Source: an uncultured Elusimicrobiaceae bacterium (GTDB taxonomy: Bacteria; Elusimicrobiota; Elusimicrobia; Elusimicrobiales; UBA9959). Taken from it: a stretch of 64,000 bases of DNA. The translations under genes were made by a program, and so were the position numbers. The notes beneath the pieces were generated by a model that saw only the letters and a list, made by a program, of their open reading frames with translations, did not search any database and had not been told where the DNA came from. The stretch spans positions 17,975-81,974 of the forward strand of contig CAYPYG010000001.1 in the NCBI GenBank assembly GCA_964415175.1, in the 5' to 3' direction. Position 1 is the stretch's first letter; every line of letters starts with the position of its first letter. Below, one piece after another: positions 5,644-60,059 of the stretch.

Positions 5644-5653
5644 GGCCCGGCCG

Positions 5654-6643: not shown

Positions 6644-6665
6644 AGCGGGGGAAAGGGGAACTCGG

Positions 6666-11776: not shown

Positions 11777-11897
11777 CGGCCCGCGGCGCCGGCCTCCCCC
11801 CTCCATCCCTATTTGATACAATCTGTTGTCCGGGACGCGCTTTTTCCGCCGCCGTCCCCGGATACCGCGATGTCGCCGGAACGATGACGGACTCCGA

Positions 11898-14774: not shown

Positions 14775-14792
14775 GCGGCGCGGGACCCGGAA

Positions 14793-17356: not shown

Positions 17357-17357
17357 G

Positions 17358-18569
17358 ATGAACGCCAGGGCCGGGCTTTACGTCTTCCTCGCCGCGCTGG
17401 CGCTGCGCCTCGGCCTGCTGTTCGGCGCGCCGTCCATACCCGAGGCCTACGAGCGCTTCGACGCCAGGGCCTACGAGGCCGTGGCGGTGAACCTGATGCG
17501 GGGCAACGGCTTCGTCGAGGCGCCGGGCCGCCCCACCGACGGCCGCCCGCCGGTCTATCCCCTGTTCCTGGCCGCGGTCTATTCGGTCACGGGCCACAGC
17601 GAATTCGCCGTGAGGCTGCTACAGTGCTTCATCGACTCGGGCAGCGCCGTCCTCCTCATGACCCTGACCGGCCTTATCTTCCCGCCCGCCGCCGCGCTGG
17701 GGGCGGGACTCCTGGCGGCGGCCTACCCGCCGTTCATACTTTACAGCAACGTGCGCCTGACCGAATGTCTTTTCATGTTCCTTTTCCTCTGGGAATGCCT
17801 GCTGCTGACCAGGGCCTTCAGGGAGGGAGACAACCGCAGGTTCGCCCTGGCCGGCATACTGCACGGCGTCGCCGTCCTCGTCAGGGCGCCGACGCTGCTT
17901 TTCCCCCTCTTCCTGCTGCCCGTCGTGCTCTTCAAACGCTTCCGCGGCCTGCTGAAGGGGTTCGTCCTTTACGCGGTGATAAGCACCGCCCTGATATCCG
18001 TCTGGACGGTGCGCAACTATTACGCCCACGGCGGCTTCCTGGCGGTCAATACCGGCAGCGGCTGGCTGATGTGGTACGCCATACAGGACGACGCCTGGGA
18101 CGGCGACAGGATACGGGAGCTCAGCCCGCTGCGCGAATACCCGGAGCTGGCGGGGCTGCCCCGCCACGAGATGGAGAGCATAGTCGGCAGGAAGGTGATG
18201 AAGTACGCGCTCACCCATCCCGTCGATTATTCGCTGAAACTGGCCCGGAACTTCCGCCGCCTGTGGACCCTCCCGATAGGCAAAGTGATGATCTCCGATA
18301 TCTCACCGCTCTACGGCGCGCTCTACCAGGCGGCCCATTACCTCCTGCTCGCCGCGGCCCTCTGCGGGTTCTTCCTGGTCACGAAGTCGAATATCATCCC
18401 CCTCCTGCCCGCGCTGCTCTACCTGGCCTACGTCTCGCTCATGCACAGCGTGATCCTCGGTACCCCCAGGTACCGCCTGCCCTACGATCACTTCATGCTC
18501 ATGTTCTGCGCCGCCGGGCTGGTCTTCCTCCGCGGCGCCGCCGGGAAACCGAAGGGGACCGCCAGGTGA
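17358..18569 (+). CDS. Polytopic GT-C glycosyltransferase (ArnT / PMT_2-like), second copy
   Basis: About 10 TM helices; N-terminal region resembles ArnT/PMT_2-family enzymes. Confidence 0.65.
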   Translation: MNARAGLYVFLAALALRLGLLFGAPSIPEAYERFDARAYEAVAVNLMRGNGFVEAPGRPTDGRPPVYPLFLAAVYSVTGHSEFAVRLLQCFIDSGSAVLLMTLTGLIFPPAAALGAGLLAAAYPPFILYSNVRLTECLFMFLFLWECLLLTRAFREGDNRRFALAGILHGVAVLVRAPTLLFPLFLLPVVLFKRFRGLLKGFVLYAVISTALISVWTVRNYYAHGGFLAVNTGSGWLMWYAIQDDAWDGDRIRELSPLREYPELAGLPRHEMESIVGRKVMKYALTHPVDYSLKLARNFRRLWTLPIGKVMISDISPLYGALYQAAHYLLLAAALCGFFLVTKSNIIPLLPALLYLAYVSLMHSVILGTPRYRLPYDHFMLMFCAAGLVFLRGAAGKPKGTAR

Positions 18570-23445: not shown

Positions 23446-24401
23446 AATCCCTCCAGCAGCGGCCCCGCCGAGCGCAGCGCGTAGGCGCGCCTGATCCCGT
23501 CCATGGCCGCCCAGGCCGCCGCGCGGCCCAGTTCGCCGGCCTCGGCGCAGCGCTCGAAATCGGCCACCTTTATGCCGCCGGCCCGCGGTTTCACCACGAA
23601 ATCGGCCCCCTTCTCCTGGCTCTCTGCCAGGATGGAGCCCCTGATGTCTATGACCTGCAGCAGCGAGAGCAGCACGTTGGACGGCATCTCGTCCACGCTG
23701 TTCTCGGTCACGCTGGCCAGCACCCATTCCGCCCCTATCCCGCGGGCCGCGTCTATCGGTATGAAGTCGACGACGCCGCCGTCCACCAGGTAGCGGTGCC
23801 TGTATTCGACGGGCGCGAAGATGCCGGGCAGGTTCACGCTGGCGCGCACCGCCACCGCCACCGGACCCTCGTCGAAGATGATCCGCTCGCCGGTGCGGAA
23901 ATCCATCGCGACGCAGGCGAAAGGGGTGCGCAGCGAGGAGAAGTCCCGGCCGCCCAGGTTGTCCTCTATGACCTGCGTGATGTACTTGGGCGAGATAAGT
24001 TTCTCGGTCAGCAGCAGGTTCAGCAGCCGGACGCCGCCGAAATCCCTGTCCAGCCTGAGTTCGGAGGTGCGGCGGCCGAACTCCCAGATCTTTTCGACCG
24101 GCATGCCCGAGGCGTAGAAGCCGCCGATGACCGACCCCATCGAAGTGCCGGAAACGCGGTCCACGGGGAAACCGGCGTAGAGCAGGGCCTCGAGCACCCC
24201 GGTATGCGCGAAACCGCGCGCGCCCCCGCCCGAAAGCGCGACGCCCGTGACGGGCCGCTCGCCGGCCGGCAGGGAGACCAGCCTGTCCCAGAACAGGTCG
24301 AGCAGCAGCGCCTCCCGCGAGGCCGCCGGCGCGGCGGCCGCCGCGCACGGGAGCGCCAGGAGAACGGCCGTCAGGAATCTCTTCGCGCAGAGCGGCTTCA
24401 C
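23442..24401 (-). CDS. Patatin-like phospholipase with signal peptide
   Basis: GVALSGGGARG and GTSMG (GxSxG) motifs. The GTG start at 24401 overlaps the TolC-like stop. Confidence 0.8.
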   Translation of the reverse strand: MKPLCAKRFLTAVLLALPCAAAAAPAASREALLLDLFWDRLVSLPAGERPVTGVALSGGGARGFAHTGVLEALLYAGFPVDRVSGTSMGSVIGGFYASGMPVEKIWEFGRRTSELRLDRDFGGVRLLNLLLTEKLISPKYITQVIEDNLGGRDFSSLRTPFACVAMDFRTGERIIFDEGPVAVAVRASVNLPGIFAPVEYRHRYLVDGGVVDFIPIDAARGIGAEWVLASVTENSVDEMPSNVLLSLLQVIDIRGSILAESQEKGADFVVKPRAGGIKVADFERCAEAGELGRAAAWAAMDGIRRAYALRSAGPLLEGL

Positions 24402-25666
24402 TCGGGCAGTCCTTCGCCCTGCGCCCAGGCCAGCCTGATAGCGGCCATCTTCTGCAGGTAGAGACTCTCGAGCAGGGCGGTCTCCTTCCCGTAGACGGCC
24501 CTGAGTCCGGCGGCCGCGCGGCCGGCGTCGGGACCCGCGCGGTAGGCTTTCTCGTAGGCCGTCGACAGGCTTTCCAGCGAAGCCCGGGCCGCCTCGGCCT
24601 CCTCGAGGCGGAACACGGCCTCCTCCCACGCCGAACGCAGTTCGCCGCGCAGACGGTCCTCCAGTTCGACCCGCTTGAGCACGCCCTGGCGCTGCTGCGC
24701 CCGGCGCTGCAGGATCTGCGTCCACCAGTCGTAGGAAAGCGGGAAATGCATGGCGACCGAGGCGGCCCAGCTGCCGGTGCGGTCGCGCATGGCGGAGATG
24801 GAGTCCGCGTCGTAGGCCACGGCGTCGTAGACGGCGCCGACATAGACGTTGGGGTAGCGGCGCAGCGAGGCCATGTTAAGCGCTATCTCGTCCATCTGCG
24901 CGCGGTAGATCTCCCCGCGCAGTTCCGGGCGCCGCTCCGTGGCGGCGATAAGGGCCTTCTGCAGGGTGCCCTCCGGCGGCTCCGCGGCCAGCTCCCCCTC
25001 TATCTCCAGGGGACCGTCGGCGCCGCGGGCCAGCTCGGCCAGGACGGACAGGGCGTCCGCGTAGGCGCGCGCGGCCCGCTCCTTCTCGCGGCTAAAAGTG
25101 TCCAGCGCCGCGGCCGTCTCCAGCGCGTCCCAGCCGCCGGCGGCCTTCGCGGCCAGCGCGGCGGCGCGCAGGTGATAGGAGGAGGCCGCGGCCAACAGTT
25201 CCCGCCGGTAAAGCGCGGTGCAGAAAGCCTCCCTCGCCCCGCGCGCCGCGGCCAGCCGCTCGGTCTCCAGTTTGAGGCGCGACTGGCTCCAGGCGTGCCG
25301 CGCCATGCGCGCGGCGTTGCGGTTGCGTCCGCCGGTATAGACCGGCTGCACCAGGTGGGCGCGGAGGGCGTAGGTATTGTCGCCGTAGGCGCCGTCCAGG
25401 TAGCGGCCGCCCAGTTCCTGCGGAAGTATCATCGGGTACTCCAGGTTCAGCCTGGAGAGGGAACCGGAAAACGCGATCTGGGGCAGCAGCAGCGACCTGG
25501 CCTCGCGCAGCCGCTGGCGCGAAATGATCACGTCCTGCTCGGCGGAAAGGAGGGAGGTGTCGTTCTTGAGCGCCAGTTCTACGAAACGCTCAACGGTTAT
25601 CGGCCCGGCCGCGGCGGGAGCCGCCGCGCACGGGAGGAATATCGGCAGGAGCAGGAGGAGGCGCAT
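24398..25666 (-). CDS. TolC-family outer membrane channel protein
   Basis: Signal peptide; duplicated OEP-type coiled-coil/barrel repeat pattern. Confidence 0.75.
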   Translation of the reverse strand: MRLLLLLPIFLPCAAAPAAAGPITVERFVELALKNDTSLLSAEQDVIISRQRLREARSLLLPQIAFSGSLSRLNLEYPMILPQELGGRYLDGAYGDNTYALRAHLVQPVYTGGRNRNAARMARHAWSQSRLKLETERLAAARGAREAFCTALYRRELLAAASSYHLRAAALAAKAAGGWDALETAAALDTFSREKERAARAYADALSVLAELARGADGPLEIEGELAAEPPEGTLQKALIAATERRPELRGEIYRAQMDEIALNMASLRRYPNVYVGAVYDAVAYDADSISAMRDRTGSWAASVAMHFPLSYDWWTQILQRRAQQRQGVLKRVELEDRLRGELRSAWEEAVFRLEEAEAARASLESLSTAYEKAYRAGPDAGRAAAGLRAVYGKETALLESLYLQKMAAIRLAWAQGEGLPE

Positions 25667-25669
25667 CGC

Positions 25670-26248
25670 TCATGTCTTGAGACCGGACAAGACCCCCCCG
25701 AGTTCCGCGGCCGCGGCTTCCAGTTCAGCCTTCAGCGGGCCGGCCTCCGGCCTGGCGGCGGCGGCCTCCAGGCGGGACCTGACGGAGGCGACGGAATCCT
25801 TGCTTTCCTTCACCGACTGCTGCAGCGAGCCGGCCATGTTGTTGAACTGCTCCTGCAGGTCCTCGAGATGGTCGCCCTTGCGCAGCCAGACCCGGTAGGT
25901 CAGGTCGCCCTCGGCCAGCGTGGCGCAGCTCTTCTCGAACTTGAAGATGGGGCCGGCCATGCGGTGCGAAACGACGGCGGACATGATCAGCACGATGACC
26001 ATGTACATGAGCATCTTGATGAGGAAGAGCGGCCCCATCGAGGCCATCTCCTCCAGCATCGGCTGCATCATCGGGCGGTCGTTGACGAACTTCGAGAGCG
26101 TCCAGATCAGGTCCAGGCCCACTATCAGGAACGCCACGAACACGCTCATCGTGATGAGCGCCATGTACCGGTACTGCAGCCCCTTCTTTATGAGTATCGT
26201 CTTGCGCTGGAAGGCCGGCTTGGCCTGCGCCTGTGCTTTGTCCGCCAT
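25670..26248 (-). CDS. Two-TM HAMP-domain protein with coiled-coil tail and no recognisable output domain
   Basis: Two TM helices, HAMP-like SHRMAGPIFKFEKSCATLAEGDLTYRV, then an Ala/Glu/Leu-rich coil. Confidence 0.6.
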   Translation of the reverse strand: MADKAQAQAKPAFQRKTILIKKGLQYRYMALITMSVFVAFLIVGLDLIWTLSKFVNDRPMMQPMLEEMASMGPLFLIKMLMYMVIVLIMSAVVSHRMAGPIFKFEKSCATLAEGDLTYRVWLRKGDHLEDLQEQFNNMAGSLQQSVKESKDSVASVRSRLEAAAARPEAGPLKAELEAAAAELGGVLSGLKT

Positions 26249-27320: not shown

Positions 27321-28088
27321 TCAGAAACTGGTCGTGTAGCGCATCTGCACCACGCGCTCGGGATTGCGCTCGGAGCCGTCCAGGAAATCCTCGCTGGCGC
27401 CGAGGTCGCGCATCGCCACGTCCAGGTGGAAGTACGGCGTGATGAAGAACCTGGTGCCGGCGTTCACGCGCTTGGGATTGTCCGAATGGAAAAGGTTGTC
27501 GTACTCGAACATGAAGGCCATCTTGTCGCCGAGCGTGTAGTTGGCCGCCAGGAAGCCGAAGATGTAGCCGTCGTCGAAATCGGGCACGTTCAGGCCGCCG
27601 TGGAAGACCAGTCCGGGGGCCAGGTATTCCTTGGAGCCGACCACGTAGAGGCCGCGGCCCTTCTCCATGTACTTCTTGAGCGCCTTGCGGTAGAAGTACC
27701 CCTGCCCGTCGAAACCCAGCGCCAGCGCCGGCACGTAGTAGTCCCCGTCGTGGAAGCGGTAGCGCACCTGTATCTCGGGGCGGACCATCCTCACGGGAGA
27801 ATCGGAGCCCACCAGTTTGTCCACCGCCATCGAAGCGCCCAGGTTGAGCCGCTCGAGCACGCCGAAGTTCAGCGAACCCAGCACTCCGCCCTCGCTGTAG
27901 AAGCGGGTCTTTATCAGGAAACCGTAATAATCCAGTATGCCGGCCGTCGGGACGTCTATCAGGCCCGTCTCGGGCAGTATGACGCCCTCCGGCTTCTCCT
28001 CCCGTTCCGCGCCTTTCTGCGCGGCCAGGGGGGCCGCCGCGAGCACCGCGAACGAGAACGCGAACAACGCTGTCATGGTCTTTTTCAT
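27321..28088 (-). CDS. Outer-membrane beta-barrel-like protein, unknown function
   Basis: Signal peptide MKKTMTALFAFSFAVLAAAPLAA; alternating strand pattern; C-terminal ...RYTTSF. Confidence 0.55.
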   Translation of the reverse strand: MKKTMTALFAFSFAVLAAAPLAAQKGAEREEKPEGVILPETGLIDVPTAGILDYYGFLIKTRFYSEGGVLGSLNFGVLERLNLGASMAVDKLVGSDSPVRMVRPEIQVRYRFHDGDYYVPALALGFDGQGYFYRKALKKYMEKGRGLYVVGSKEYLAPGLVFHGGLNVPDFDDGYIFGFLAANYTLGDKMAFMFEYDNLFHSDNPKRVNAGTRFFITPYFHLDVAMRDLGASEDFLDGSERNPERVVQMRYTTSF

Positions 28089-28138
28089 CTTTTTCTCTAC
28101 GCTCCTTGGTCTTTCACCGAACGACATTCTAGAAAATT

Positions 28139-34635: not shown

Positions 34636-35721
34636 TCAAAGGGCCCGCGCCCGGCGCAGTCCCCACAGACCGAGCGCCAGGAAGAACAGCAGCGGACCGA
34701 AGGCGGCCGTGAACGGGCCCAGTATCTCCACCTGGCCGGCGGACTGGCCGAACATCATCGCGGCCCAGAGCAGGAAGCCGGACCCTATCGCGAGGCCGAG
34801 ATTGAAAAGTCTGCCCTGGCTGCCCAGCAGCAGGACCACCGCGGCGCCGAGCAGCGCCATGACCGGGTTGGCCAGCGGCGCGGCGAGCTTGCCCCAGAGG
34901 ACGGTCTCCTCCTCCGCCGACGGGGCGCCGATGAGACGCAGGCGTCTTATGCGCAGGAAAAGGCCGCGCATCGAGATCCCCTCCGGGACCAGTTTGTCCA
35001 TCACCATGTCCCAGGGCGCGAGCGCTATGTCGGAAATATGCGTTTCGCGGCGGGAAACCGCCGGCCCGGAAGGCAGGTACTCGGTCATCAGCGCGCCGTG
35101 GAACACCCAGCGCCCGCGGTCCGGGTCCCAGACGGCGGTCTCCGCCGAGATCTCCCCCGAAAGTTCCCCGGCGGCGTAGATATCGGCCGACACCTTCTCC
35201 ATCCGGCCCGCCGCCCCGTCGAACAGCCTCGCCGTGAGGAACACCCCTCCCCCCACCGAGAAGGAGACGTCCTCCCGGACCAGGCGGCGCCAGTCGTCGT
35301 AACCCCGCAGGTCCTCGTAATAAAGTTCCTGGGACCTCATAAAGGCCGGGGGCATCAGCAGTTCCTGCGCCGCCAGGTGCAGGACGGAGACGCCCAGGGC
35401 GCAGGCGAGCAGCGGCGCCAGCATCTGTGCCGGGCGGTAGCCGCCGGCCAGGCCCGCCTTCCATTCGCCCCGCGCCATGAGCCCGCCCAGGGCGAAAAGC
35501 GAGGCCAGCAGCGTCGCCATCGGCATCACCCTGACGGCGAAATAAGGCGCCTGCAGTCCTATATAGGAAAGAAAAAGCCCGGCGCCGGCGTCCTTCCCGG
35601 TGAAAACGGCCAGTTTGTCGAACGCGGTCCCGAAAAGGATGAGGGCCAGAAAGATCCCCAGGCCGAAAACGAAAGGGCCCCAGTAAAGAGAGGAGACGTA
35701 CCTGAAGAAGGTCTTTCTCAT
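34636..35721 (-). CDS. LptF/LptG family (YjgP/YjgQ) permease
   Basis: Six-TM pattern with a large periplasmic insert and a typical N-terminus; ATGA overlap with its partner. Confidence 0.8.
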   Translation of the reverse strand: MRKTFFRYVSSLYWGPFVFGLGIFLALILFGTAFDKLAVFTGKDAGAGLFLSYIGLQAPYFAVRVMPMATLLASLFALGGLMARGEWKAGLAGGYRPAQMLAPLLACALGVSVLHLAAQELLMPPAFMRSQELYYEDLRGYDDWRRLVREDVSFSVGGGVFLTARLFDGAAGRMEKVSADIYAAGELSGEISAETAVWDPDRGRWVFHGALMTEYLPSGPAVSRRETHISDIALAPWDMVMDKLVPEGISMRGLFLRIRRLRLIGAPSAEEETVLWGKLAAPLANPVMALLGAAVVLLLGSQGRLFNLGLAIGSGFLLWAAMMFGQSAGQVEILGPFTAAFGPLLFFLALGLWGLRRARAL

Positions 35722-36839
35722 CTGAAACTCAGTTTCCTGCGCCAGAGCCAGGCCCCCGCCAGGGCGCCGGCCGCCGTCGGCGCGAACATGACCCAGGGAA
35801 AAAGACCGGGCTGCTTGCGGCTTAGCGCCATGCCGGCCACGGTCAGCCCGTAATAGAGGAATATGACCAGCAGGCTGGCGGCGAAGCCGGAGGACCTGGC
35901 CTTCGAGTCCAGCACCAGCCCCAGCGGGGCGCCGAGCAGGAAAAAGACCAGCGGCGCCAGGGTCACGGAAAGCCGGCTGACTATCTCCATCCGGTAACGG
36001 AGGGCCAGGCGGCCGTCCTCCACCCCTTCGGACAGCCTGGCGAGCAGCGCGGGCGTGGTCATTTCCCTGGCGTGCAGGGGCCGCGTTTCGGTCCCGCCGG
36101 AAAAGAAGGGCAGCAGCGTCCTGTAGGAAGTGAAACCGCCGTGCATGAGACGCGCCCGTCCGCCGAAGGAGGACTGGCTAAGCGTGCCGTCGGCCAGTTC
36201 TATCTTTATCCCGAGGGCGGGTTCCACGCCGTAACGGCCCCGCGAGGCGCTGATGCGCATCAGCCGCGGCTGGGACCCCGGGCGCTGCACCCGCCGCGTC
36301 AGTTTCACGCCCCCGAGCCGTCCCGTCACGGCGTCGGCCTCGTCCGCGTAGAAGGTCCAGTCGGCTATCCTGCGGAAAGTCCGCGGCTTGAGCTCGATAT
36401 GCGTTATGCGGGAGACCATCGCCTCGACATGGTCGTTGGAACGCTTGAGGCTGACCGGGCCGGCCCAGTTCCCGAGCGCCGCGGTAAGCGCCGCGGCGCC
36501 CGCCGCGGCCAGGAGCAGCGGCGCCAGGACGCGCCCGAAGGAGAAGCCCGACGCGCGCAGCGCCATGATCTCGCCGTCGCGGGAAAGCTGGCCCAGGCCC
36601 AGGAGCAGCGCCATGAGGAAAGCGATCGGCAGCACGAGGGTCATGACGTTGGGCAGCAGGAAGAGGAGCGTCCGCGACATGAGCGGGAAGGAAAAGCCGT
36701 GCAGGACCCCCTCGTGCAGTATCTGGAGGAAGTTGACCATTACGATGAGCGCGGAGAAGATGAAGACCGAAAGCAGGAAAAAGCCGCCGAAGACCTTCAG
36801 CACATAGCGCTGCGCGACAGTTATCCTCATCGTTTCCAT
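35718..36839 (-). CDS. LptF/LptG family (YjgP/YjgQ) permease
   Basis: Paralogous architecture to 34636-35721. Confidence 0.8.
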   Translation of the reverse strand: METMRITVAQRYVLKVFGGFFLLSVFIFSALIVMVNFLQILHEGVLHGFSFPLMSRTLLFLLPNVMTLVLPIAFLMALLLGLGQLSRDGEIMALRASGFSFGRVLAPLLLAAAGAAALTAALGNWAGPVSLKRSNDHVEAMVSRITHIELKPRTFRRIADWTFYADEADAVTGRLGGVKLTRRVQRPGSQPRLMRISASRGRYGVEPALGIKIELADGTLSQSSFGGRARLMHGGFTSYRTLLPFFSGGTETRPLHAREMTTPALLARLSEGVEDGRLALRYRMEIVSRLSVTLAPLVFFLLGAPLGLVLDSKARSSGFAASLLVIFLYYGLTVAGMALSRKQPGLFPWVMFAPTAAGALAGAWLWRRKLSFR

Positions 36840-36853
36840 TCTATTATATATTT

Positions 36854-36863
36854 TGATTATAAT
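36854..36863 (+). promoter_or_regulatory. Extended -10-like TGATTATAAT in the divergent lptF/G - giant OMP intergenic region
   Basis: AT-rich 80-bp gap; motif match only. Confidence 0.35.
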
Positions 36864-36919
36864 ACTACGATGACCGTACGGCGGGCAGCGAGCCGCCGCG
36901 CGCTTTCGCTCGTCGCCAC

Positions 36920-39900
36920 GTGAAAAAAGTCCTGCCGCTCATACTTCTTCTTTCGGCCGCCCCGTCGCGGGCGGAGGAGCACTATTCCGCTCCCCCTCCG
37001 CCGCCGTCCGGCAGGTTCCTGCTGCTCGACAGGGAGGACTCCTCCTCCCTTTTCCCGCCGGCCGCCGAAGAGGAGGCCGGGCCGGAGAGCGGAGAGGGCG
37101 GACTGGACCGGCTGCTGGACCGCCTGCCGGTCTCGGACTATTCCCAGGAGAGGTGGAACAAGGTCCGCGGCGACATCGAGACCGGCCGCTTCCAGCGGGA
37201 GGAAACGCCGCCGCTGGCCCGCGTGGCCGTCTCCACCGACACCCCGCTGTCCCCTCCGCCGGAACTGGAGTTCAGGGAATCGGGCACCACGCTCTCCCTG
37301 ACGGGCCGCAAGGTCATCGGCTTCAACTACAGCGGCAAACGCTACATGAAGGAACAGACCACCGTCATACGGCCGCGCTCGCTGAGCCTTTTCGAGATAA
37401 GCCAGCAGCTGCAGGTGCGCATGCAGGGCAAGGTCGGGCAGAAGATAACCGTCAACGTGGACTACGACGACACCAAGGAGGACAGGCAGGACATCTCCGT
37501 CGTCTACCAGGGCGATCCCAACGAGGTCGTGCAGAACGTCTCGTTCGGCGACATAGACCTTTCCCTGCCCTCGACCGAGTTCGTTTCCTACAACAAGCAG
37601 CTCTTCGGCATCAGGGCCGACCTGCGCGCCAAGGGCTTCGCGCTGACCTTCATCGGCTCGCGCACCAAGGGCCAGACCAAGGTGAAGCAGTACACCGGCA
37701 ACACGCAGTTCCAGACCGTGGACGTCCAGGACGTCAACTACCTGCGCCGGCGCTACTACGACGTGGCCTTCCGCGATTACGCCTATTTCCCCTCCTCCGA
37801 GGGACTCCCGGCGGGCCGGCTGCCCATCAAACCCGGCTCCGAGTCCGTCTACATAGACCGGCAGAGCGCGGCCGCCGTCGACAATATCACGATCTCCTCG
37901 ATAACCGCCGACGACCTGGCGCTGCAGACAACGACCTACACCGGCCGTTTCCAGCGGCTCAGCCCCGGCATCGACTACACGATGGACTACTCCAAGGGCA
38001 TACTGACCTTCAGCCAGACGCTGAACGTCCAGGACGTCGTCATCATAGACTACGTCAACGCGAACGGCACGCTGCTCTCGCAGAACACCTCTTCCATAAC
38101 GGTCAACACCGGCGGCACCCTGCGGCCCAAGCTGGTCAAGACCCGCAACGACGCCCCGATCAACTCCGGTTCGCTGACCGACGACGATTTCGCCGCCCAG
38201 GCCGGCTGGAACCGCGAGATAAAGACCTATTATTCGATAGGCCAGACCAACCTGGTGCGCGACGACGGCCGCGGCAGCTTCACGCTCAAGCTGCAGGACT
38301 TCAACCGCAACGAGGTCTCCGCGCCGGGCACCGACGGCAACCCGGTAAAATACCCCGACAACATAGAAGTGGACTTCGAGCAGGGCGTCTTCAAGCTCAA
38401 ATACCCTTTCCAGGACCCGGAACTGGCCGGCACGGCCGACCGGCAGATCTATTCGGCCGCCCCGGCCGCGCGGCGGCTCTTCCGCGTGGAGTATTCCTAC
38501 AGGTTCAAGACCTTCCTGCTGGAGCCCTCCATAGTCGTGAATTCCGAGATCGTGACCGTGGACAAGCAGAGGCTGCGCAAGAACGAGGAATACTTCATCG
38601 ACTACGACTCGGGCTTCATCACCTTCTACTACCCCGACCGCATAGGCCAGAACAGCGCGATAGAGATCAGCTACGAGGTCTCGCCCTTCGGAGGGGCCGG
38701 CAATCTCTCGCTGGTGGGCGGCCGCGTGTCCTACGACTTCGGCTCCAGGCTCTCGCTGGGCAGTTCGCTCCTCTACCAGGGCGGCATCAAGGCCAAGTCC
38801 GTGCCCAGCGTGACCGACCTGACCAGCAGCATGTTCGTCTACGAGGGCGACGTACAGCTCAAGAACCTCAACCTCTTCGGCCTGAGGATGACCCTGGGCG
38901 GCGAGATAGCCCAGTCCAGGCTCAACCCCAACCTCAACGACTACGCGCTGGTGGACAACATGGAGGGCGTCAAGCAGGAGGATGCGCCCTCCATGGACAG
39001 GAACTTCTGGTTCATAGCGGCCAACCCGCCCGGCTCGGTCGACACTTCGGCGGACCCGGCGTCGGTCGCCTGGAACACCGTGGAGATCAAGGCGCGCGAC
39101 ATAAACCCTTCGGCCACTTCCGACGGGACGCAGCAGGTCCTCTCGGTCTCCTACGACTTCACGCTCTCCAACGAGGTCTCCATCGTCTACCCGCTTTCGG
39201 CGACCGGGCTGGACTTCACCCAGAAGACGGCGCTCGAGATGGTGCTGCAGGGCCAGGGCGCCGGCGGACCGGAGGTGAACCTGCACTTCGGCCAGATAGA
39301 CGAGGACGCGGACGGACGCGGCGGACAGAACTTCGCCTGCTCCAGCGGACTGGCGCTGTTCGGAGCGCCCAGAAGCGAGGACCTCAACTGCGACGGCCAG
39401 CTCTCCAGCACGGAGGACATCGGCTGGGAATACGCGCCGGCCGGCAAGGGCTCCACGCGCTACGGGGCCAATAACGGACGCATAGACTCGGCCGACCTCA
39501 ACCGCAACGGCCGCCTGGACCCGCAGGACTTCAGCGGCGGTTCTTTCGGCTATGTCACCGGCACCAAGTTCACCGACACCACGGATTCCGCCCAGAAGAA
39601 CGCGGTGGATTCAACGGAGTGGCGCACCTGGAACATGCCGCTGTTCATCGCCTCCACCGAGACCTACAAGTGGAACGCGGTCAAGCAGCTGCGCCTGACG
39701 CTGCGCAAGGCGGCGGGCGGCTCCAATTCGGGCACGGTGCGCTTCGCGCGCATCGCGGCCGTCGGCAACACCTGGACGGTGCAGCAGAGCACGACCACGG
39801 GGACCCTGCAGCTCCTGGGCGTCAACAACATCGACAATCCCACCTATGTGCCCATCTACAGCGTGGGCGGACCCCCGTCGCAGGTCTACAACTCCCTTTA

Positions 39901-42301
39901 CGGCTCGGTCTCGGAGCAGCGCGAGCGGACGAATTCCTCCAATGTCAGCGAGCAGGCCCTCTCCGTCTCCTACAATTCGGTGGTCTCGACCTCCACGGTC
40001 TACGCCTACCGCAAGTTCCCGCAGGCGCTGGACATCTCGCAGCACGAGGAGTTCCGCTTCCTGCTCTACGACAACGCCACGCCCAACGCCAGTTTCTATC
40101 TGAAGATCGGCGACGAGAACAGCTACTTCAAGGCCTCGGTGGCCCCGGCGGCTTCGGCGGGCTGGCGGCTGATCACGCTGCGCCAGGAGGACGTCAACGG
40201 CGACAAGATCCCGGACGTCTGGACCAACGCGAGCCCCTACGCCGTGGAGATCTCCTCCCGCGGCAATCCCAGCCTGCAGCAGGTCTCGGGCATACTGATA
40301 GGCGCGGAGACCGCCGCGGGCCAGCAGAGCGGCACCTTCTACCTCAACGAGATCCACCTGGCCAAGCCTCTTATGCGCGTCGGCGAGGCCCGCAAGGCCG
40401 AGGCTTCGTTCGAGATCCCCGGCTGGATGACCTTCGGCGGCAAGCACCGCGAGACGGACCGCAACTTCCAGACCCCGGTCTCGGTCATCTCCAACCAGGA
40501 CAACGAGCAGCAGACGGCTTACCTCAATTTCAACAGGCTCTCCTTCTTCCCGCTCGCTTTCACCGGCGCCCGCCAGGTCACGGTCACGCCCAACACCTAC
40601 GTCACCGGCGGCAGCAGCCTGGTGACATTGCTGCAGCAGGGGCGGGTGAAGAAGCTCGACGGAACGGCGGCCGGCAATCTCTCGCTGGGCGGCCTGCCCA
40701 GGATCTCGCTGAATTACGCCGGCAACAGGACCGAGTACGACCTGCTCAAGCGCGACGACAGCAGGGACGTCTATTCCGGCGCCCTGACCTACAGTCCGCC
40801 GCTGCAGTTCTTCCTGCTGCCGCGCACGCTGAGCCTCACCTACTCGCTGACCAGCAGCCGCGTGGACTACCGGACGGAGGAACTGGACTCGCTGGACGGC
40901 CTGTACCGCACCGAGGAGCGCGTCGACGCCTACGGGGCCCGGCTGAACTTCGTCCCCTGGCGGGGCTCCACCTTCAACCCCTCCTACAACCTGCAGGAAA
41001 CGCGCGAAAAGAAGGACGAGCTCTTCAGCGGCAACAGTTACGATTATCCCAAGGCCCGTCAGCAGACCGTCGACTTCAACTCCAACTTCCTGCTGGCGCG
41101 CTGGTTCAACCCGGCCGTCAACTACTCGGTCACGACGATGGAGAACAACAATATCGTCGTCACGACCGTGACCGTCGTGACCTCCTCGGCGGTCTACTCG
41201 CCCGGCGAGATCAAGACCGTCAACCGCACGGCGCAGGGCGGCGTGAGCCTGAACTTCAGCATGAACGATCTCACGCCCCGGAACCGCCTGCTCCGCTCGC
41301 TGGTGGTCTCCTCCAACTTCCAGATACAGGACGGCGATTCCTGGCAGAACGTCGAGCGGGACTACGACACGGCCAACAAGCTCTGGGTCCGGGAGAGCCT
41401 GCGGCCGCGCAACGCCCTGGCGCTGAGGAGCTCTCTCACTACGCGCGACACGTTCACCTCCAACCAGAGGTGGCAGCCGCTGGAGGGCTACGCCCTCAAG
41501 GGCCGGCTCGCGCCGCTCTCCACCATCTCGATAACTAACAATTTCTCCAGCACCTACCAGAAATCGGACGTGACCGGCACCAGGTCGCGGGTCTCGAACC
41601 GGACGTTCCCCGACGCCATAATCTCCATCTCCAAGCTCGAGGTGCTGGCCGGCGCGCAGTCCTGGGCGCGCAACGCCACGATGAACGTCAAGTACTCCAA
41701 CAATACCAACGAGACCAGGACCATCAGCCTGGACCTCACCCGCTCCTACGGGACGGACCTGCGCTTCCGCCTGCTGGAGAAGGTAGACACCGCCCTGAGC
41801 TACAATTACCGCTTTACCGAGAGGAAGGACCTGCGCCGCGGCCAGGTGACGCAGAGCGCCGAGCACCACGACGCCACGGTGCAGGGGACTTTCGACTACC
41901 GCAAGTTCCGCTTCACCCCAAAAGTGGACTACTCGCTGGACTACGGCAAGACCGCGCTCGGCGTGGTCAACCAGGACCTGACCGTCATGACCCCCAGCCT
42001 GCTGATCAAGACCGACTTCCAGGCGCCCAAGGGGCTTCGCCTGCCTTTCATGAAGCAGGCCGTGGTCTTCAGCAACCGCATAGTCTGGACCACCACGCTC
42101 AGCTACGCCATCCGCAAATCTCCCATCGTGGTGGCGGAGAACAACAGGCTGTTCTCCATGAACACCACCGCCGATTACGAGGCGGCCAAGAACCTGCGCC
42201 TCGCCTTCAACGCTTCGGTGCAGCGGCTCTGGCACAAGTATCTGCACCAGGAAGACTACCTTTCCTACACCGCCGGCAGCACGCTGACGTTCCAGTTCTA
42301 G
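36920..42301 (+). CDS. Giant (1793 aa) outer-membrane beta-barrel protein, SprA/Sov-like
   Basis: Signal peptide MKKVLPLILLLSAAPSRA; C-terminal ...TLTFQF. The N-terminal blocks MQGKVGQKITVNVDYDD and KQLFGIRADL...TFIGSRTKGQ...YLRRRYYDVAF resemble the SprA N-terminal region as I recall it. Confidence 0.6.
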   Translation: MKKVLPLILLLSAAPSRAEEHYSAPPPPPSGRFLLLDREDSSSLFPPAAEEEAGPESGEGGLDRLLDRLPVSDYSQERWNKVRGDIETGRFQREETPPLARVAVSTDTPLSPPPELEFRESGTTLSLTGRKVIGFNYSGKRYMKEQTTVIRPRSLSLFEISQQLQVRMQGKVGQKITVNVDYDDTKEDRQDISVVYQGDPNEVVQNVSFGDIDLSLPSTEFVSYNKQLFGIRADLRAKGFALTFIGSRTKGQTKVKQYTGNTQFQTVDVQDVNYLRRRYYDVAFRDYAYFPSSEGLPAGRLPIKPGSESVYIDRQSAAAVDNITISSITADDLALQTTTYTGRFQRLSPGIDYTMDYSKGILTFSQTLNVQDVVIIDYVNANGTLLSQNTSSITVNTGGTLRPKLVKTRNDAPINSGSLTDDDFAAQAGWNREIKTYYSIGQTNLVRDDGRGSFTLKLQDFNRNEVSAPGTDGNPVKYPDNIEVDFEQGVFKLKYPFQDPELAGTADRQIYSAAPAARRLFRVEYSYRFKTFLLEPSIVVNSEIVTVDKQRLRKNEEYFIDYDSGFITFYYPDRIGQNSAIEISYEVSPFGGAGNLSLVGGRVSYDFGSRLSLGSSLLYQGGIKAKSVPSVTDLTSSMFVYEGDVQLKNLNLFGLRMTLGGEIAQSRLNPNLNDYALVDNMEGVKQEDAPSMDRNFWFIAANPPGSVDTSADPASVAWNTVEIKARDINPSATSDGTQQVLSVSYDFTLSNEVSIVYPLSATGLDFTQKTALEMVLQGQGAGGPEVNLHFGQIDEDADGRGGQNFACSSGLALFGAPRSEDLNCDGQLSSTEDIGWEYAPAGKGSTRYGANNGRIDSADLNRNGRLDPQDFSGGSFGYVTGTKFTDTTDSAQKNAVDSTEWRTWNMPLFIASTETYKWNAVKQLRLTLRKAAGGSNSGTVRFARIAAVGNTWTVQQSTTTGTLQLLGVNNIDNPTYVPIYSVGGPPSQVYNSLYGSVSEQRERTNSSNVSEQALSVSYNSVVSTSTVYAYRKFPQALDISQHEEFRFLLYDNATPNASFYLKIGDENSYFKASVAPAASAGWRLITLRQEDVNGDKIPDVWTNASPYAVEISSRGNPSLQQVSGILIGAETAAGQQSGTFYLNEIHLAKPLMRVGEARKAEASFEIPGWMTFGGKHRETDRNFQTPVSVISNQDNEQQTAYLNFNRLSFFPLAFTGARQVTVTPNTYVTGGSSLVTLLQQGRVKKLDGTAAGNLSLGGLPRISLNYAGNRTEYDLLKRDDSRDVYSGALTYSPPLQFFLLPRTLSLTYSLTSSRVDYRTEELDSLDGLYRTEERVDAYGARLNFVPWRGSTFNPSYNLQETREKKDELFSGNSYDYPKARQQTVDFNSNFLLARWFNPAVNYSVTTMENNNIVVTTVTVVTSSAVYSPGEIKTVNRTAQGGVSLNFSMNDLTPRNRLLRSLVVSSNFQIQDGDSWQNVERDYDTANKLWVRESLRPRNALALRSSLTTRDTFTSNQRWQPLEGYALKGRLAPLSTISITNNFSSTYQKSDVTGTRSRVSNRTFPDAIISISKLEVLAGAQSWARNATMNVKYSNNTNETRTISLDLTRSYGTDLRFRLLEKVDTALSYNYRFTERKDLRRGQVTQSAEHHDATVQGTFDYRKFRFTPKVDYSLDYGKTALGVVNQDLTVMTPSLLIKTDFQAPKGLRLPFMKQAVVFSNRIVWTTTLSYAIRKSPIVVAENNRLFSMNTTADYEAAKNLRLAFNASVQRLWHKYLHQEDYLSYTAGSTLTFQF

Positions 42302-42334: not shown

Positions 42335-43051
42335 ATGGGGCTGAACTTCAAAGGACTCGGGATAAGACTGCTGGGCGTGCTCCTGCCCCGCACCTGCGTC
42401 CACTGCGCCGAGGACCTGCCCGCCGCTTCGGAGCGGCCGCTGTGCGCGGACTGCCTGGCCGCCCTGGAAAGGCCGGGACCCCCGCTCTGCGGCCGCTGCG
42501 GTCTGCCGCTGCGGTCCGCGGAGGTCTGCCGGTCCTGCCGGGGACCGCGGCCCCCTTTCGACCTGGCCAGGTCGGCGTTCCTTTTCAACCCTCCGCTGCG
42601 CTCGCTCCTGCACGCCTTCAAATACTCCGGCCGCCGGGACCTGGCGCGGCCGCTGGCGCTCATGATGGCGTCGGAACTGGCGCTTCTCGAGGAGCTCACC
42701 CCGTTCCGGACGGTGCTGCCGGTCCCGCTGCATCCCTCGAGGGAGCGGCGGCGCGGCTACAACCAGTCGGCGCTGCTCGCCCGCGGCCTGGCCGAAGCCG
42801 CCGGCCTTTCTTTCGCGGAGGACCTGCTGACGCGGGAGCGGGAGACGCGCCCGCAGGTGGACCTGAAGCGCAGGGAGAGGCTGGAGAACGTGCGCTGGGC
42901 CTTCCGCGCCGCGCCGGGCGCGGCCGGAGGCAGTTTCCTGCTGGTGGACGACGTGGCCACCACGCTGGCGACCGCCGGGGACGCCGCGCGGGCGCTGAAA
43001 GAGGCCGGCGCGGCCGCCGCGGCCGTGTTCACGCTGGCGCGGGAGCCCTGA
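42335..43051 (+). CDS. comF: ComF family protein (phosphoribosyltransferase domain with N-terminal Cys4)
   Basis: CVHC...CADC...CGRC Zn-ribbon-like motifs; FLLVDDVATTLAT PRTase motif. Confidence 0.8.
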   Translation: MGLNFKGLGIRLLGVLLPRTCVHCAEDLPAASERPLCADCLAALERPGPPLCGRCGLPLRSAEVCRSCRGPRPPFDLARSAFLFNPPLRSLLHAFKYSGRRDLARPLALMMASELALLEELTPFRTVLPVPLHPSRERRRGYNQSALLARGLAEAAGLSFAEDLLTRERETRPQVDLKRRERLENVRWAFRAAPGAAGGSFLLVDDVATTLATAGDAARALKEAGAAAAAVFTLAREP

Positions 43052-56681: not shown

Positions 56682-58796
56682 ATGGGTACAGGGGATACGC
56701 GGGAACCGGCCGCCGCGCCGTATTTCGCCGCGGCCATCTTCCTCGGCGCCTTCCTGCTTTTCCAGGTGCAGCCGATGATGGCCAAGGCCATACTGCCCTG
56801 GTTCGGCGGCGCGCAGGCGGTCTGGACCACCTGCATGCTGTTCTTCCAGACGGCGCTGCTGGGCGGTTATCTCTACGCCCACCTCCTCACCACCCGTCTC
56901 AGGCCGGACGCGCAGACGGCGCTGCACCTGGCGCTGCTCCTGCTCAGCGCGCTCTTCATACGCATACTGCCCTCGGCCGACTGGCGCCCGCTTAACAGCG
57001 GGGCTCCCGCGTTCAGGATACTGCTGCTGCTGGCGGTCAATGTCGGTCTGCCGTTCTTCCTGCTCTCCGCCACCAGCCCGCTGCTGCAGTCCTGGTACGG
57101 CGCGGCGGCGCCGGGCAGTTCCCCCTACAGGCTCTACGCTCTCTCCAACGCGGGGTCGATGCTGGCGCTGCTCAGCTATCCTTTCCTGGTGGAACCCTTC
57201 CTCGAACTGCGCGCGCAGGCCGGCCTGTGGGGCATCCTCTATATACTCTTCGCGATAGCGCTCTGGCGTTCCTCCCGGGTCTATCTGGCCGCCCGGCCGG
57301 GCCCGCTTCCGGCGCCGTGGTCCGCCGCCGCGGCCGGCCGCCCCCCGGCCTCCGCGATCGCGTTCTGGACGCTGCTCGCCGCCTGCGGCTCGGCGATACT
57401 GCTCTCGGGCACGGCGCAGCTGACGCAGAACGTGGCGCCGGCGCCTTTCCTCTGGATACTGCCTCTCTCTCTCTACCTGCTCTCTTTCATCCTCTGCTTC
57501 GAGAGCGACCGCTGGTACTCGCGCGGCAGGTGGACGGTCTATTTCGGCTTCGCCTGCGCCGGAACGGTCTACCTCCTGTCCGCCTGGATAAAGACGCCGC
57601 TGGCGCTGCAGCTGCCCATACATTCGCTCTCGATCTTCATCGCCTGCATGGTCTGCCACGGCGAACTGGCAGCGCTCCGTCCCGCAGCGGGGCACCTGAC
57701 GCTCTTTTATGTCGCGGTCTCGGCCGGCGGCGCGCTGGGCGGACTGCTGACGGCGCTGGGCGCGCCGCTGCTGCTGGACGGGCCGTGGGAATACCACATC
57801 GCCTGGGGCACGCTGGCGGCCGCGGTGCTGGTCCTGCTCGCCGGCCGGGCCGGCCTGCGCTCCGGGCGCGCGCGCCTCGGCGGCGCGGCGCTGCTGGCCC
57901 TCTACGGCGGCTTCGTCTACGCGCTTTACGCCAATTATTCCGAGGAATCCTCCTCGCGCCTGGACATGCGGCGCAACTTCTACGGCACGCTGCAGGTCTA
58001 TGAATGGGAGCATTACGGCGCGCAGGCCCTGACCCTGATGCACGGCCAGATCGACCACGGCTTCCAGTTCCTCGAAGGGGACCCGCGCAGGGACAGGCCG
58101 GTCTCCTATTACGGGCCGGACTCGGGCGCCGGGGCGGCGGTGCGCGCGCTGCGCCGCAGGCGGGGCGGCCGGGCGGGGCTGGAAATGGGCGTCGTCGGGC
58201 TGGGGGCCGGCATCATGGCCGCCTGGGGCCGGAGCGGCGACAGGCTGACCTTCTACGAGCTCAACCCGCTGGTGACGCGGCTGAGCTACGCCTATTTCAC
58301 CTACCTCGATTCGACGCGCGCCGGCGTGGCGGTGGTCATGGGCGACGCGCGGCTGAGCCTGGAACGCGAAGCGGCCGGGAAGGCGCGCCGTCAGGACCTG
58401 CTGGTCCTCGACGCTTTCAGCAGCGACGCCATACCGCTGCACCTCCTCACGCGCGAAGCCTTCGAAGTCTATTTCAGGCGGCTCAAGCCCGGCGGAGTGC
58501 TCGCCGTGCACGTATCCAACCGTTTCCTGGACCTGGAACCGCTGGTGGCCGGTCTCGCGGAGGAACGCGGCCTGGCCTGGACGGTGACGGACTCTTACGA
58601 GGTCCCGGAGGACGGCGCCTCGGCCAGCACCTGGGTGCTGGTCAGCGCCGACGCGGAACTCCTGTCGGGCCCGCCGGTCTCGAGCCGTTCGCGCGGGCTG
58701 GAGGAAGGCCGCGCGCCGCTGGTCTTCACGGACCGCCACAGCGATCTCTTCAGGCTCATCCGCGGCGGCTGGCTGGCCGGGGCGGACATGGAATGA
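56682..58796 (+). CDS. Polytopic membrane domain fused to a spermidine-synthase-like methyltransferase fold
   Basis: About 12 TM helices in the N-terminal two-thirds; C-terminal LLVLDAFSSDAIPLHLLTREAF...LKPGGVLAVHVSN is typical of spermidine-synthase-like proteins. Confidence 0.75.
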   Translation: MGTGDTREPAAAPYFAAAIFLGAFLLFQVQPMMAKAILPWFGGAQAVWTTCMLFFQTALLGGYLYAHLLTTRLRPDAQTALHLALLLLSALFIRILPSADWRPLNSGAPAFRILLLLAVNVGLPFFLLSATSPLLQSWYGAAAPGSSPYRLYALSNAGSMLALLSYPFLVEPFLELRAQAGLWGILYILFAIALWRSSRVYLAARPGPLPAPWSAAAAGRPPASAIAFWTLLAACGSAILLSGTAQLTQNVAPAPFLWILPLSLYLLSFILCFESDRWYSRGRWTVYFGFACAGTVYLLSAWIKTPLALQLPIHSLSIFIACMVCHGELAALRPAAGHLTLFYVAVSAGGALGGLLTALGAPLLLDGPWEYHIAWGTLAAAVLVLLAGRAGLRSGRARLGGAALLALYGGFVYALYANYSEESSSRLDMRRNFYGTLQVYEWEHYGAQALTLMHGQIDHGFQFLEGDPRRDRPVSYYGPDSGAGAAVRALRRRRGGRAGLEMGVVGLGAGIMAAWGRSGDRLTFYELNPLVTRLSYAYFTYLDSTRAGVAVVMGDARLSLEREAAGKARRQDLLVLDAFSSDAIPLHLLTREAFEVYFRRLKPGGVLAVHVSNRFLDLEPLVAGLAEERGLAWTVTDSYEVPEDGASASTWVLVSADAELLSGPPVSSRSRGLEEGRAPLVFTDRHSDLFRLIRGGWLAGADME

Positions 58797-58841: not shown

Positions 58842-60059
58842 ATGAAAGTAATATCGACAGCGCTGCTCCTGCTCCTGCCCTGGCCGGCGGCGGCCAGGAT
58901 AGAGGACAGGACCGAAGAACTTTATACGGCCGCCGCGGCCGGCGACCTGAAGACCGTCAGGGCCATACTGGAGGAGAGCGACCAGAACGTGAACGTCTCC
59001 TACGACGACAACGACACCTCCCCCCTGATGCTGGCCTGCCGGGCGGGGAACGAGGAACTGGCGGAACTGCTGATAAAACATGGCGCGGACATCGCGGCCG
59101 TGGACGCCGGCGGCAGGCCGGTGGAAGAATACCTCCTCCCGCCGGCCGGGCCCGCGCATAAGCGGCTGCGCCGGCTGCTGTACGCGGCGGCGGCCGAAAA
59201 GAGCGTACAGCTGCCCTACGCCTGGTCGACGCTTTTCATGCCCGACCCCGCCTCTTCCCCGGCGCTCTCCCCCGACCCCCAGGTACTGCCCGCGGGCAAC
59301 GCCGCCGACGGCGACCCTGCCACCGCCTGGGCGGCGAAAGGGACCGGCGCGGAACTGTGGCTTTTCATAAATCCCGGGGCCTCTTCGCTGCGCGTGAGCA
59401 ACGGCTGCGCGAAAACCAGGGCGCTCTTCAAGGCCAATAACCGCGCGAAGAAACTGGCCGTCTCAGTCTGGACCGCCGAGCATCTGGACGGCGACGTCAC
59501 GGAAACGGCGCGCGCCTGGAAAGCCGCCAGACTGACCGCGGACGCCGCGCTGCAACTCAAGGACGCCCCGGAAACGCAGGAGTTGCCCCTTCCTTTCAAC
59601 TGGGAGGAACTGCGTTTCAGGCGGGCGGAAGCCGTCTCTTCCCTGATGAAGCGGGCCGATTACCGCGGCAGGAAGCGGCTCTATTCCTCCTTCGTCCTGC
59701 GCCTGGAACCCCTGGAGGTGTACCGCGGCTCCGGATCCGGCGACACCTGCGTCTCCGAGCTCGCCGCCGGCGGCCGCTGGCTTAACGAGGCCGCGCTGCC
59801 GGGCGTCTGGGAACGGCCTTACGGCGGCGCGAGCGAGACGATATCGCTTTCCACCCCGCAGGAACGCCTCTATTCGCTCAAACGGGGGGACAAGACCCTG
59901 CATTCGGGCAACTGGCGCGTCGAGGACGGTCTGCTGGTCATGGAGCACGAGGCGGGCGCCGCGCGCTACGGGGCCTTCGTGGAGACGCGAGGCGGGAAGA
60001 AGACCCTCCGCCTGACCGGCGAAGGCGGCGAAACGCTTATTTACCGGCCGGCGCGCTGA
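58842..60059 (+). CDS. Secreted ankyrin-repeat protein with discoidin-like middle domain
   Basis: Signal peptide; ANK units (LYTAAAAGDLKTVRAIL, SPLMLACRAGNEELAELLIKHGADI); NAADGDPATAWA...G.ELW motif. Confidence 0.65.
   Translation: MKVISTALLLLLPWPAAARIEDRTEELYTAAAAGDLKTVRAILEESDQNVNVSYDDNDTSPLMLACRAGNEELAELLIKHGADIAAVDAGGRPVEEYLLPPAGPAHKRLRRLLYAAAAEKSVQLPYAWSTLFMPDPASSPALSPDPQVLPAGNAADGDPATAWAAKGTGAELWLFINPGASSLRVSNGCAKTRALFKANNRAKKLAVSVWTAEHLDGDVTETARAWKAARLTADAALQLKDAPETQELPLPFNWEELRFRRAEAVSSLMKRADYRGRKRLYSSFVLRLEPLEVYRGSGSGDTCVSELAAGGRWLNEAALPGVWERPYGGASETISLSTPQERLYSLKRGDKTLHSGNWRVEDGLLVMEHEAGAARYGAFVETRGGKKTLRLTGEGGETLIYRPAR

Follow-up and report, generated by a model that had tools for sequence, protein, structure and literature searches.

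A 64,000-nucleotide stretch of DNA from an uncultured Elusimicrobiaceae bacterium (contig CAYPYG010000001.1, positions 17,975 to 81,974; hereafter the window) carries a giant gene whose 1793-residue product is a true homologue of SprA/Sov, the outer membrane translocon of type IX secretion systems (T9SS), and is a new, shorter variant of that translocon. With a probability of about 65%, this sprA-like gene encodes the Elusimicrobiota SprA/Sov, the translocon of a T9SS-like pathway outside the Fibrobacteres-Chlorobi-Bacteroidetes (FCB) phyla. The window protein is homologous to SprA in sequence and matches it in fold, and PorV/PorQ-family genes and proteases tagged with a C-terminal domain (CTD) exist in Elusimicrobiota, in some genomes clustered with lptG-lptF and the sprA-like gene. 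Since relatives in the phylum encode partners and tagged cargo beside the gene, its product is probably a working protein-export pore rather than an orphan or a lipid exporter. By extension from these relatives, PorV/PorQ and CTD partners would lie elsewhere in this genome, and transport would presumably follow the SprA mechanism.

The first in-frame start of the sprA-like open reading frame is a GTG at 36920 on the forward strand, and its stop codon ends at 42301. The first-pass annotation of this DNA had described a 5.4-kb reading frame from 36840 encoding 1793 residues with a signal peptide and a Pro-rich linker; the length, signal peptide and linker stand, but the start does not, position 36840 being the first base past a divergent lptF-like gene that ends at 36839. 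Read by eye, the translation opens with a putative signal peptide, MKKVLPLILLLSAAPSRA, followed by EE and the Pro-rich linker, and closes with ...GSTLTFQF. Tyr, Thr, Ser, Asn and Gly together make up 35.4% of the residues, in agreement with the composition described earlier.

Homology to SprA was evident from profile searches. The sole NCBIfam match of the protein was TIGR04189 ("T9SS outer membrane translocon Sov/SprA"), which is significant though below its curated cut-off of 200 bits (E=8.7e-34, 116 bits, in three stretches). The best stretch pairs residues 118-285 with profile positions 92-261, and in no other stretch of the family are invariant residues so dense. All 25 family members sampled match TIGR04189, with a best E of 8.8e-53, and it is the only family common to all 25. 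A profile built from these 25 sequences matched only Flavobacterium johnsoniae SprA in the PDB (E=3.6e-20; 6H3I, 6H3J, 8GL6 and related entries), with four stretches aligning in the same order (profile/SprA 151-281/160-291, 524-602/701-779, 884-1064/1213-1403 and 1082-1168/1459-1546). In the first of these, the window sequence QGKVGQKITVNVDYDD lies opposite SprA MGKIGTRLEVNANYD, and LFGIRADL...GSRTKGQTK lies opposite SprA LFGVKTQLQFG...SEQKSQTK, so that both N-terminal blocks likened to SprA in the first-pass annotation are genuine. A Pfam scan of the protein gave nothing useful, and single-sequence phmmer against the PDB returned no match, SprA being reached by profiles only. An intermediate-family profile scored Elusimicrobia proteins at ~1000 bits, a Marinimicrobia "cell surface protein SprA" at 615 bits and Bacteroidota SprA proteins, which carry PF14349, at ~260-390 bits. 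By bridging these three groups, the profile places the window protein in a broad SprA superfamily; the T9SS literature covers no more than one end of it.

The predicted fold points the same way. We modelled the chain with AlphaFold as two overlapping halves, each from a 79-row alignment, and Foldseek ranked SprA first for both. Model 1 (residues 594-1793, mean predicted local distance difference test score, pLDDT, 86.8) matched 8gl8_A best (E=4.5e-42, template modelling (TM) score 0.58), followed by 8gl6, 6h3i and 6h3j, and its next-best matches, LptD, TonB-dependent receptors and SlpA, reached ~1e-5 only. Model 2 (residues 61-1260, mean pLDDT 79.6) matched 8gl6_A best (E=2.6e-50). DSSP assigned 28 consecutive long strands at residues 1136-1791, four at residues 597-669 and others from residue 123, a tally over two half-models that brings the total to the order of the 36 strands of the SprA barrel (PMC10994853). 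As modelled, the protein looks like a single-chain capped beta-barrel of roughly 36 strands, with the same barrel design as SprA and smaller loops and cap domains. The cap region is predicted to contain Ca-binding-like D-x-D-x-D-G loops, a conserved Cys pair (C807 and C824, nearly invariant in the family alignment) and a CBM-like jelly roll, with CBM11/CBM30 sub-matches for model 2 in Foldseek. At the N-terminus, model 2 falls below pLDDT 50 at its residues 1-15 and 29-53 and forms a helix at its residues 16-27, which corresponds to the conserved helix at residues 76-87 of the protein (W79 invariant); no LptD-type jellyroll is present at the N-terminus in this model. The tail may be analogous to the N-terminus of F. 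johnsoniae SprA, which is held by SkpA (PMC10994853). The gene and its parts are as follows.

36920..42301, forward strand: sprA-like gene, encoding a predicted 1793-residue giant outer-membrane beta-barrel of an Elusimicrobiota subfamily of SprA/Sov (open reading frame, TIGR04189, profile alignment to SprA in the PDB, Foldseek)
36920..36973, forward strand: putative signal peptide, residues 1-18, MKKVLPLILLLSAAPSRA (direct reading of the translation)
36974..37270, forward strand: predicted periplasmic N-terminal tail, residues 19-117, a Pro-rich low-confidence linker with one conserved helix (model 2)
37271..37774, forward strand: conserved N-terminal SprA homology block, residues 118-285, with the first barrel strands (TIGR04189; SprA 160-291)
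38708..38926, forward strand: four long strands, residues 597-669, assigned to the barrel wall (DSSP of both models; adjoining profile positions 524-602 equal SprA 701-779)
38942..40318, forward strand: predicted extracellular cap region, residues 675-1133 (both models; aligns with SprA 1213-1403)
40325..42298, forward strand: C-terminal run of ~28 consecutive long beta-strands, residues 1136-1793, with the outer-membrane-protein-type end ...TLTFQF (DSSP of model 1; first part equals SprA 1459-1546)

Relative to F. johnsoniae SprA (Fjoh_1653; 6H3I, 6H3J, 8GL6, 8GL8) and Sov of Porphyromonas gingivalis, the window protein is colinear from the N-terminal block through the cap, and, as modelled, shares the giant single-chain barrel, the extracellular cap and a disordered periplasmic N-terminal tail. 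The likeness extends to PorV/PorQ-family genes and type-A CTD cargo in its phylum, sometimes at the same locus. In contrast, identity in structural alignments is ~12-15%, and the window protein is indeed some 600 residues shorter (1793 versus 2403), as first noticed from the translation. The deficit is spread over inserts and loops, amounting to ~170 residues before SprA 701, ~150 before 1213 and ~230 in the C-terminal part. The genomic setting also differs: the phylum lies outside the FCB group, and lptFG and comF accompany the gene here, while ruvA stands upstream at the one Bacteroidota-type locus examined.

A distribution scan of one genome per GTDB species found relatives encoded at at least 193 species loci (designated below by L numbers). 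The best 80 loci were all from Elusimicrobiota, including Ca. Endomicrobium trichonymphae, and the best 120 homologues were full-length proteins, mostly of 1730-1850 residues, all with Elusimicrobiota source names and all annotated as hypothetical. The closest locus, L005 (JAGVVD010000008.1, from the metagenome-assembled genome (MAG) WAS_Bin_5), encodes a protein 98% identical to that of the window, and identities in the window clade range from 81 to 98%. An exhaustive profile search returned 2006 representatives at E<=1e-3 and 669 (50% clustering) at E<=1e-30, with lengths of ~1550-2500 residues; among those with a named source are Ca. Firestonebacteria and Ca. Hydrogenedentota. The SprA-like proteins of candidate phyla (Ca. 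Firestonebacteria P0207, 1765 residues; Ca. Hydrogenedentota P0268, 2150 residues; and the L086 and L092 lineages) belong to the same superfamily, are 25-35% identical to the window protein and are all annotated as hypothetical. Among these loci, comF lies downstream at L085 (Firestonebacteria), L086 and L092, lptFG is divergent at L086 and L092 but not at L085, and CTD cargo stands beside the gene at L086 and L092. Our literature search found no papers linking SprA or T9SS with Elusimicrobia. A 2024 paper states that T9SS genes are absent outside the FCB phyla, and the TXSScan survey placed T9SS in Bacteroidetes only (PMC4793230). The host being an Elusimicrobiota MAG, the earlier suggestion of a lineage outside the classical T9SS hosts proved correct.

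Candidate carriers were found at orthologous loci with the PorV/PorQ family model NF033709 (cut-off 90 bits) and by jackhmmer.

L064:12386-13345: PorV/PorQ family, 144 bits to NF033709 (PorQ 100 bits), 1 kb downstream of a 47%-identical orthologue
L045: PorV/PorQ-like, 70.7 bits to NF033709, ~4.5 kb downstream of the orthologue, in the 62%-identity clade
L094, L092, L046 and L083: PorV/PorQ-like, 44-55 bits to NF033709, near or adjoining the orthologue
L008: PorV/PorQ-like, found by jackhmmer, in the 62%-identity clade

When the L064, L008 and L045 proteins were combined with two Marinimicrobia PorV/PorQ sequences in one profile, it matched F. johnsoniae PorV in the PDB (6h3i_F, E=3.3e-21). 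Such a profile was needed, as phmmer of single PorV-like proteins against the PDB gave no match.

Tagged cargo was sought with jackhmmer seeded with two CTDs from L088, and matches included a 1545-residue protein between the sprA-like gene and comF at L086 and an M6 protease adjoining lptG at L092. The L092 CTD scores 29.7 bits to TIGR04183, above the cut-off of 23, and also matches the PorU CTD. Among the sequences that this protease retrieved as a query were full-length orthologues under the labels Elusimicrobiota, Elusimicrobia, Endomicrobiia and Elusimicrobiales, PF18962 being on record for two. The CTD was present in 102 of the 120 M6 orthologues listed and stood at the extreme C-terminus in all 11 that bore one of these four labels; they have the typical ending ...GxYxYR...K.GK.aiv(R/K). 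One Elusimicrobia contig (DOOR01000024.1, GCA_003512775.1) reads metK, ahcY, a tetratricopeptide repeat (TPR) gene, a gene for a 498-residue PorV-like protein, M6-CTD, lptG and lptF, then, divergently, sprA-like, comF and gap, its sprA-like product having 1768 residues and 33.5% identity to the window protein. Type-A CTD cargo was found neither in the window nor in ~1.3 Mb of sprA-like flanks from Elusimicrobiota MAGs, apart from the L093-95 species, and a de novo search for a C-terminal domain common to unrelated proteins in Elusimicrobiota loci found none.

Other proteins encoded beside these genes deserve mention. The 1545-residue protein of L086 is an fn3 protein with a C-terminal T9SS-like domain. 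Just upstream of the PorV-like and M6-CTD genes, L092:3489-4328 and L094:7685-8488 encode a TPR protein (267-279 residues) with a weakly BamD-like N-terminus, a possible partner of the SprE/PorW type. At L064, the gene directly upstream of sprA-like (L064:1343-5605, reverse strand) encodes a 1420-residue fusion of TPR, Ser/Thr kinase, WD40 and FGE-sulfatase domains. GldK/PorK are FGE-sulfatase-family proteins, and this fusion does not look like an orthologue of them.

In the most likely mechanism, proteins bearing a C-terminal Ig-like type-A sorting domain would be carried across the inner membrane by Sec, would enter the barrel from the periplasm and would exit sideways, bound to a PorV/PorQ-family outer-membrane carrier. 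The remaining T9SS components are either too divergent for the models or absent from the Elusimicrobiota system. Several results weigh against a translocon of this kind. Besides the sub-threshold TIGR04189 score, PF14349 (SprA_N) has no match in the window protein at E<=1; this domain is carried by a few Elusimicrobiota-family proteins (P0094, P0301 faintly). Our own CTD and PorV/PorQ profiles matched none of the open reading frames of the window, the three closest loci (L005, L041 and L084) hold no PorV/PorQ-family gene or CTD protein, and the larger PorV-like proteins (434-526 residues) score well under the family cut-off. Finally, TXSScan records no T9SS in Elusimicrobium minutum Pei191 or TG1 Rs-D17, and in fact zero secretion systems of any kind in either (PMC4793230, Table S3), so the pathway may have no motor and ring and may work otherwise than in Bacteroidota.

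The immediate neighbours of the sprA-like gene are as follows.

36840..36919, no strand: 80-bp divergent intergenic region between the lptF-like and sprA-like genes, AT-rich in its first 40 bp
35718..36839, reverse strand: lptF-like lipopolysaccharide (LPS)-export permease gene (PF03739 E=3e-61; TIGR04407 152 bits, cut-off 230)
34636..35721, reverse strand: lptG-like LPS-export permease gene, with a 4-bp overlap with lptF (PF03739 E=9.5e-56; TIGR04408 145 bits, cut-off 240)
42335..43051, forward strand: comF/gntX-like gene (double zinc ribbon and phosphoribosyltransferase), 33 bp downstream of the sprA-like gene (PF18912; NF008616/TIGR00201)

Strong PF03739 matches to both permeases bear out the divergent pairing with lptF and lptG that had been read from the sequence. 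TIGR04407 and TIGR04408 separate the lptF-like from the lptG-like gene, both under the equivalog cut-offs. The intervening gap is exactly 80 bp, as annotated, but its AT-rich character is confined to the first 40 bp (25% GC versus 53% overall); the GC content of the window is ~65%. A consensus promoter scan of the divergent region found no promoter, and promoter and terminator scans of this region and the sprA-like 3' end found nothing.

The pairing is conserved in relatives. Of the Elusimicrobiota MAG loci (L001-L084), 64 have at least 1.5 kb of upstream sequence, and in 54 of these a divergent lptF lies within 1.5 kb of the sprA-like gene, with a median of 130 bp between the two starts. Sorted by identity to the window protein, it is found at 44 of 44 loci at >=55%, 5 of 6 at 49-55% and 5 of 14 below; a deep clade without lptFG has the glycan genes GT4, Bac_transf and DegT upstream of the sprA-like gene instead. 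Distant loci with the pairing include L087 (Elusimicrobia, 33% identity), L092 (34% identity) and L086. At L086, a lipid A cluster (lpxD, an lpxC/fabZ fusion, lpxA and lpxI; L086:1244-7498) adjoins lptG-lptF, 2.5 kb upstream of the gene for a 2028-residue sprA-like protein. Divergent lptFG is also present at L088, where the SprA (1915 residues, with PF14349) groups with the canonical clade, being 30% identical to Marinimicrobia SprA over 91% of its length, and is preceded by two Por_Secre_tail proteins. The canonical loci L089, L090 and L091 lack the pairing. Because it occurs even at a canonical-type SprA locus with Por_Secre_tail cargo, the lptFG adjacency is ancestral, and it is therefore no argument for recruitment of the barrel to lipid export.

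Gene order is shared over a wider region as well. The block often extends to comF, gap, pgk, tpi and secG; metK and ahcY precede it in L087, L092 and L094, and comF lies downstream of the sprA-like gene in Elusimicrobiota, Firestonebacteria (L085), L086, L092 and L094. In the L092 lineage secG closes the conserved block, and it is also found near the sprA-like gene at L087. Bacteroidota-type L091 (L091:522-3055 and 9344-9928) has ruvA upstream of sprA, and secG and lptE 7-9 kb upstream. The positions of secG in L091, L092 and L087 hint at very old synteny. The lptFG pairing, a gene order of long standing that canonical SprA loci share, may reflect synteny only, or it may, by analogy, reflect a coupling of cargo anchoring to LPS, which is conceivable because T9SS cargo of P. 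gingivalis is attached to anionic LPS (A-LPS).

A functional adjacency of this sort would refine the translocon reading rather than replace it: co-regulation would tie cargo secretion to LPS export, and cargo would be anchored to LPS after CTD removal, as in P. gingivalis. We regard this refinement as possible but not likely. The pairing persists across phylum-level divergence (~25-35% identity) with a short gap, and DegT, GT4 and Bac_transf stand upstream in the deep clade; in P. gingivalis, both the attachment of cargo to A-LPS and the linking sugar (Wbp/Vim) are established (PMC9143113, PMC7468200). However, no PorU or PorZ homologue was identified, in scans run without PorU/PorZ seeds or a whole-genome search, the canonical loci L089, L090 and L091 lack the pairing, and the neighbouring housekeeping genes are also conserved.

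Might the barrel instead stand alone? The window clade (81-98% identity) could have lost, or never had, PorV/PorQ and CTD cargo, leaving a minimal translocon that would work alone, perhaps as a gated pore through which folded proteins or polymers are exported or imported. The first-pass annotation had called the gene an orphan with no T9SS partner nearby. For the 64-kb window this holds, since a Pfam or NCBIfam scan of 45 of the 48 crude gene calls showed no T9SS family; for the phylum it does not, as PorV/PorQ-family genes and type-A CTD proteins occur in Elusimicrobiota, several beside the orthologue. The missing partners in the window, L005, L041 and L084 and the zero systems listed by TXSScan for two complete Elusimicrobia genomes would fit a true orphan. 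Nonetheless, the 62%-identity clade (L008, L045) and clades that branch deeper have PorV/PorQ-family genes close to the orthologue, and one M6-CTD protein is labelled Elusimicrobiales. T9SS genes are scattered even in Bacteroidota genomes, so absence from 64 kb says little. We therefore consider a true orphan unlikely.

About equally improbable is a stripped-down type IX system in Elusimicrobiota and sister candidate phyla, in which the SprA-like barrel, a PorV/PorQ carrier and CTD cargo would function without GldKLMN/PorKLMN and would be wired to LptFG, LPS export energising or anchoring the release of cargo. At its extreme, this proposal would make the barrel the missing LptD.

The other option raised in the first-pass annotation was a SprA-fold barrel recruited to lipid export together with LptFG. 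Here, a barrel with a lateral opening, co-expressed with LptFG, would do the work of LptD/LptE, forming the outer-membrane stage of the Lpt pathway, and export LPS or glycolipid. Like the window protein, LptD/LptE is a large barrel in the outer membrane with a genetic link to the Lpt pathway. In LptD, substrate leaves by a lateral gate; the barrel is built of 26 strands, with a jellyroll at its N-terminus and LptE as its plug. The divergent lptFG at 54 of 64 loci, the lipid A genes adjoining lptFG at L086 and the glycan-synthesis genes upstream in the deep clade without lptFG could all be read in favour of such a replacement. So could the report that LptD, along with BamBCD and FadL, is absent from all Endomicrobiaceae despite the presence of LPS genes (PMC11257099). 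In contrast, the window protein is a weak fold match to LptD, far below SprA (E ~1e-5, TM ~0.15), has no Pfam or NCBIfam match to PF04453/PF03968 (LptD/OstA) and, in model 2, no N-terminal OstA/LptD jellyroll to receive the LptA bridge. The wider block with comF, gap, pgk and secG looks like plain synteny. We downgraded the idea because lptFG is paired with SprA at L088 beside Por_Secre_tail proteins, and because CTD cargo and PorV-like genes share the Elusimicrobia cluster. Recruitment to lipid export is thus unsupported, and we judge it very unlikely.

Least probable of all is a structural outer-membrane protein without a transport role, for instance one that scaffolds or tethers the envelope in the manner of the large Deinococcus-Thermus SlpA barrels: the gene appears widespread and well conserved in the phylum and SlpA is among the weak fold matches, but SlpA scores ~37 orders of magnitude below SprA, Pfam and NCBIfam show no SLH or peptidoglycan-binding domain, and the gene clusters with cargo and carrier genes.

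With the gene read as the Elusimicrobiota SprA/Sov, a conserved homologue in this phylum, with relatives in Firestonebacteria and Hydrogenedentota, widens the range of type IX-like secretion and offers a phylum hitherto without one a candidate route of export. A naturally minimised SprA, ~600 residues shorter, may also help to show which of its parts the translocon cannot do without. Should the motor truly be absent, the family would make the question of how T9SS is energised directly testable.

Some further observations concern neighbouring genes. At canonical-type L088, the gene downstream (L088:15795-16217) is ComEA-like (HHH_3) and is followed by PilM_2; the comF/gntX-like and ComEA-like neighbours are a link to DNA-uptake genes. 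Within the window, 27321-28127 (reverse strand) encodes a 268-residue protein with an N-terminal signal-like segment, a C-terminal ...RYTTSF and no Pfam or NCBIfam match, which may represent an undescribed family of small outer-membrane barrels. The gene at 24398-26248 (reverse strand) encodes a TolC-like outer-membrane efflux protein with OEP repeats and adjoins one for a small HAMP-domain protein; no pump genes were identified beside them. At 56682-58796 (forward strand) lies a gene for a 704-residue polytopic membrane protein without a family match, whose soluble C-terminal part, to judge from its sequence, looks methyltransferase-like; it is followed at 58842-60059 (forward strand) by one for a secreted ankyrin-repeat protein with a weak F5/8-type-C-like region. 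Finally, a glycan-synthesis cluster occupies 2641-18569, with a WecA-like GT4, a DegT aminotransferase, an epimerase, a nucleotidyltransferase and a GT2, as well as four radical-SAM enzymes, of which two bear B12-binding domains, and two PMT_2/ArnT-like membrane glycosyltransferases.

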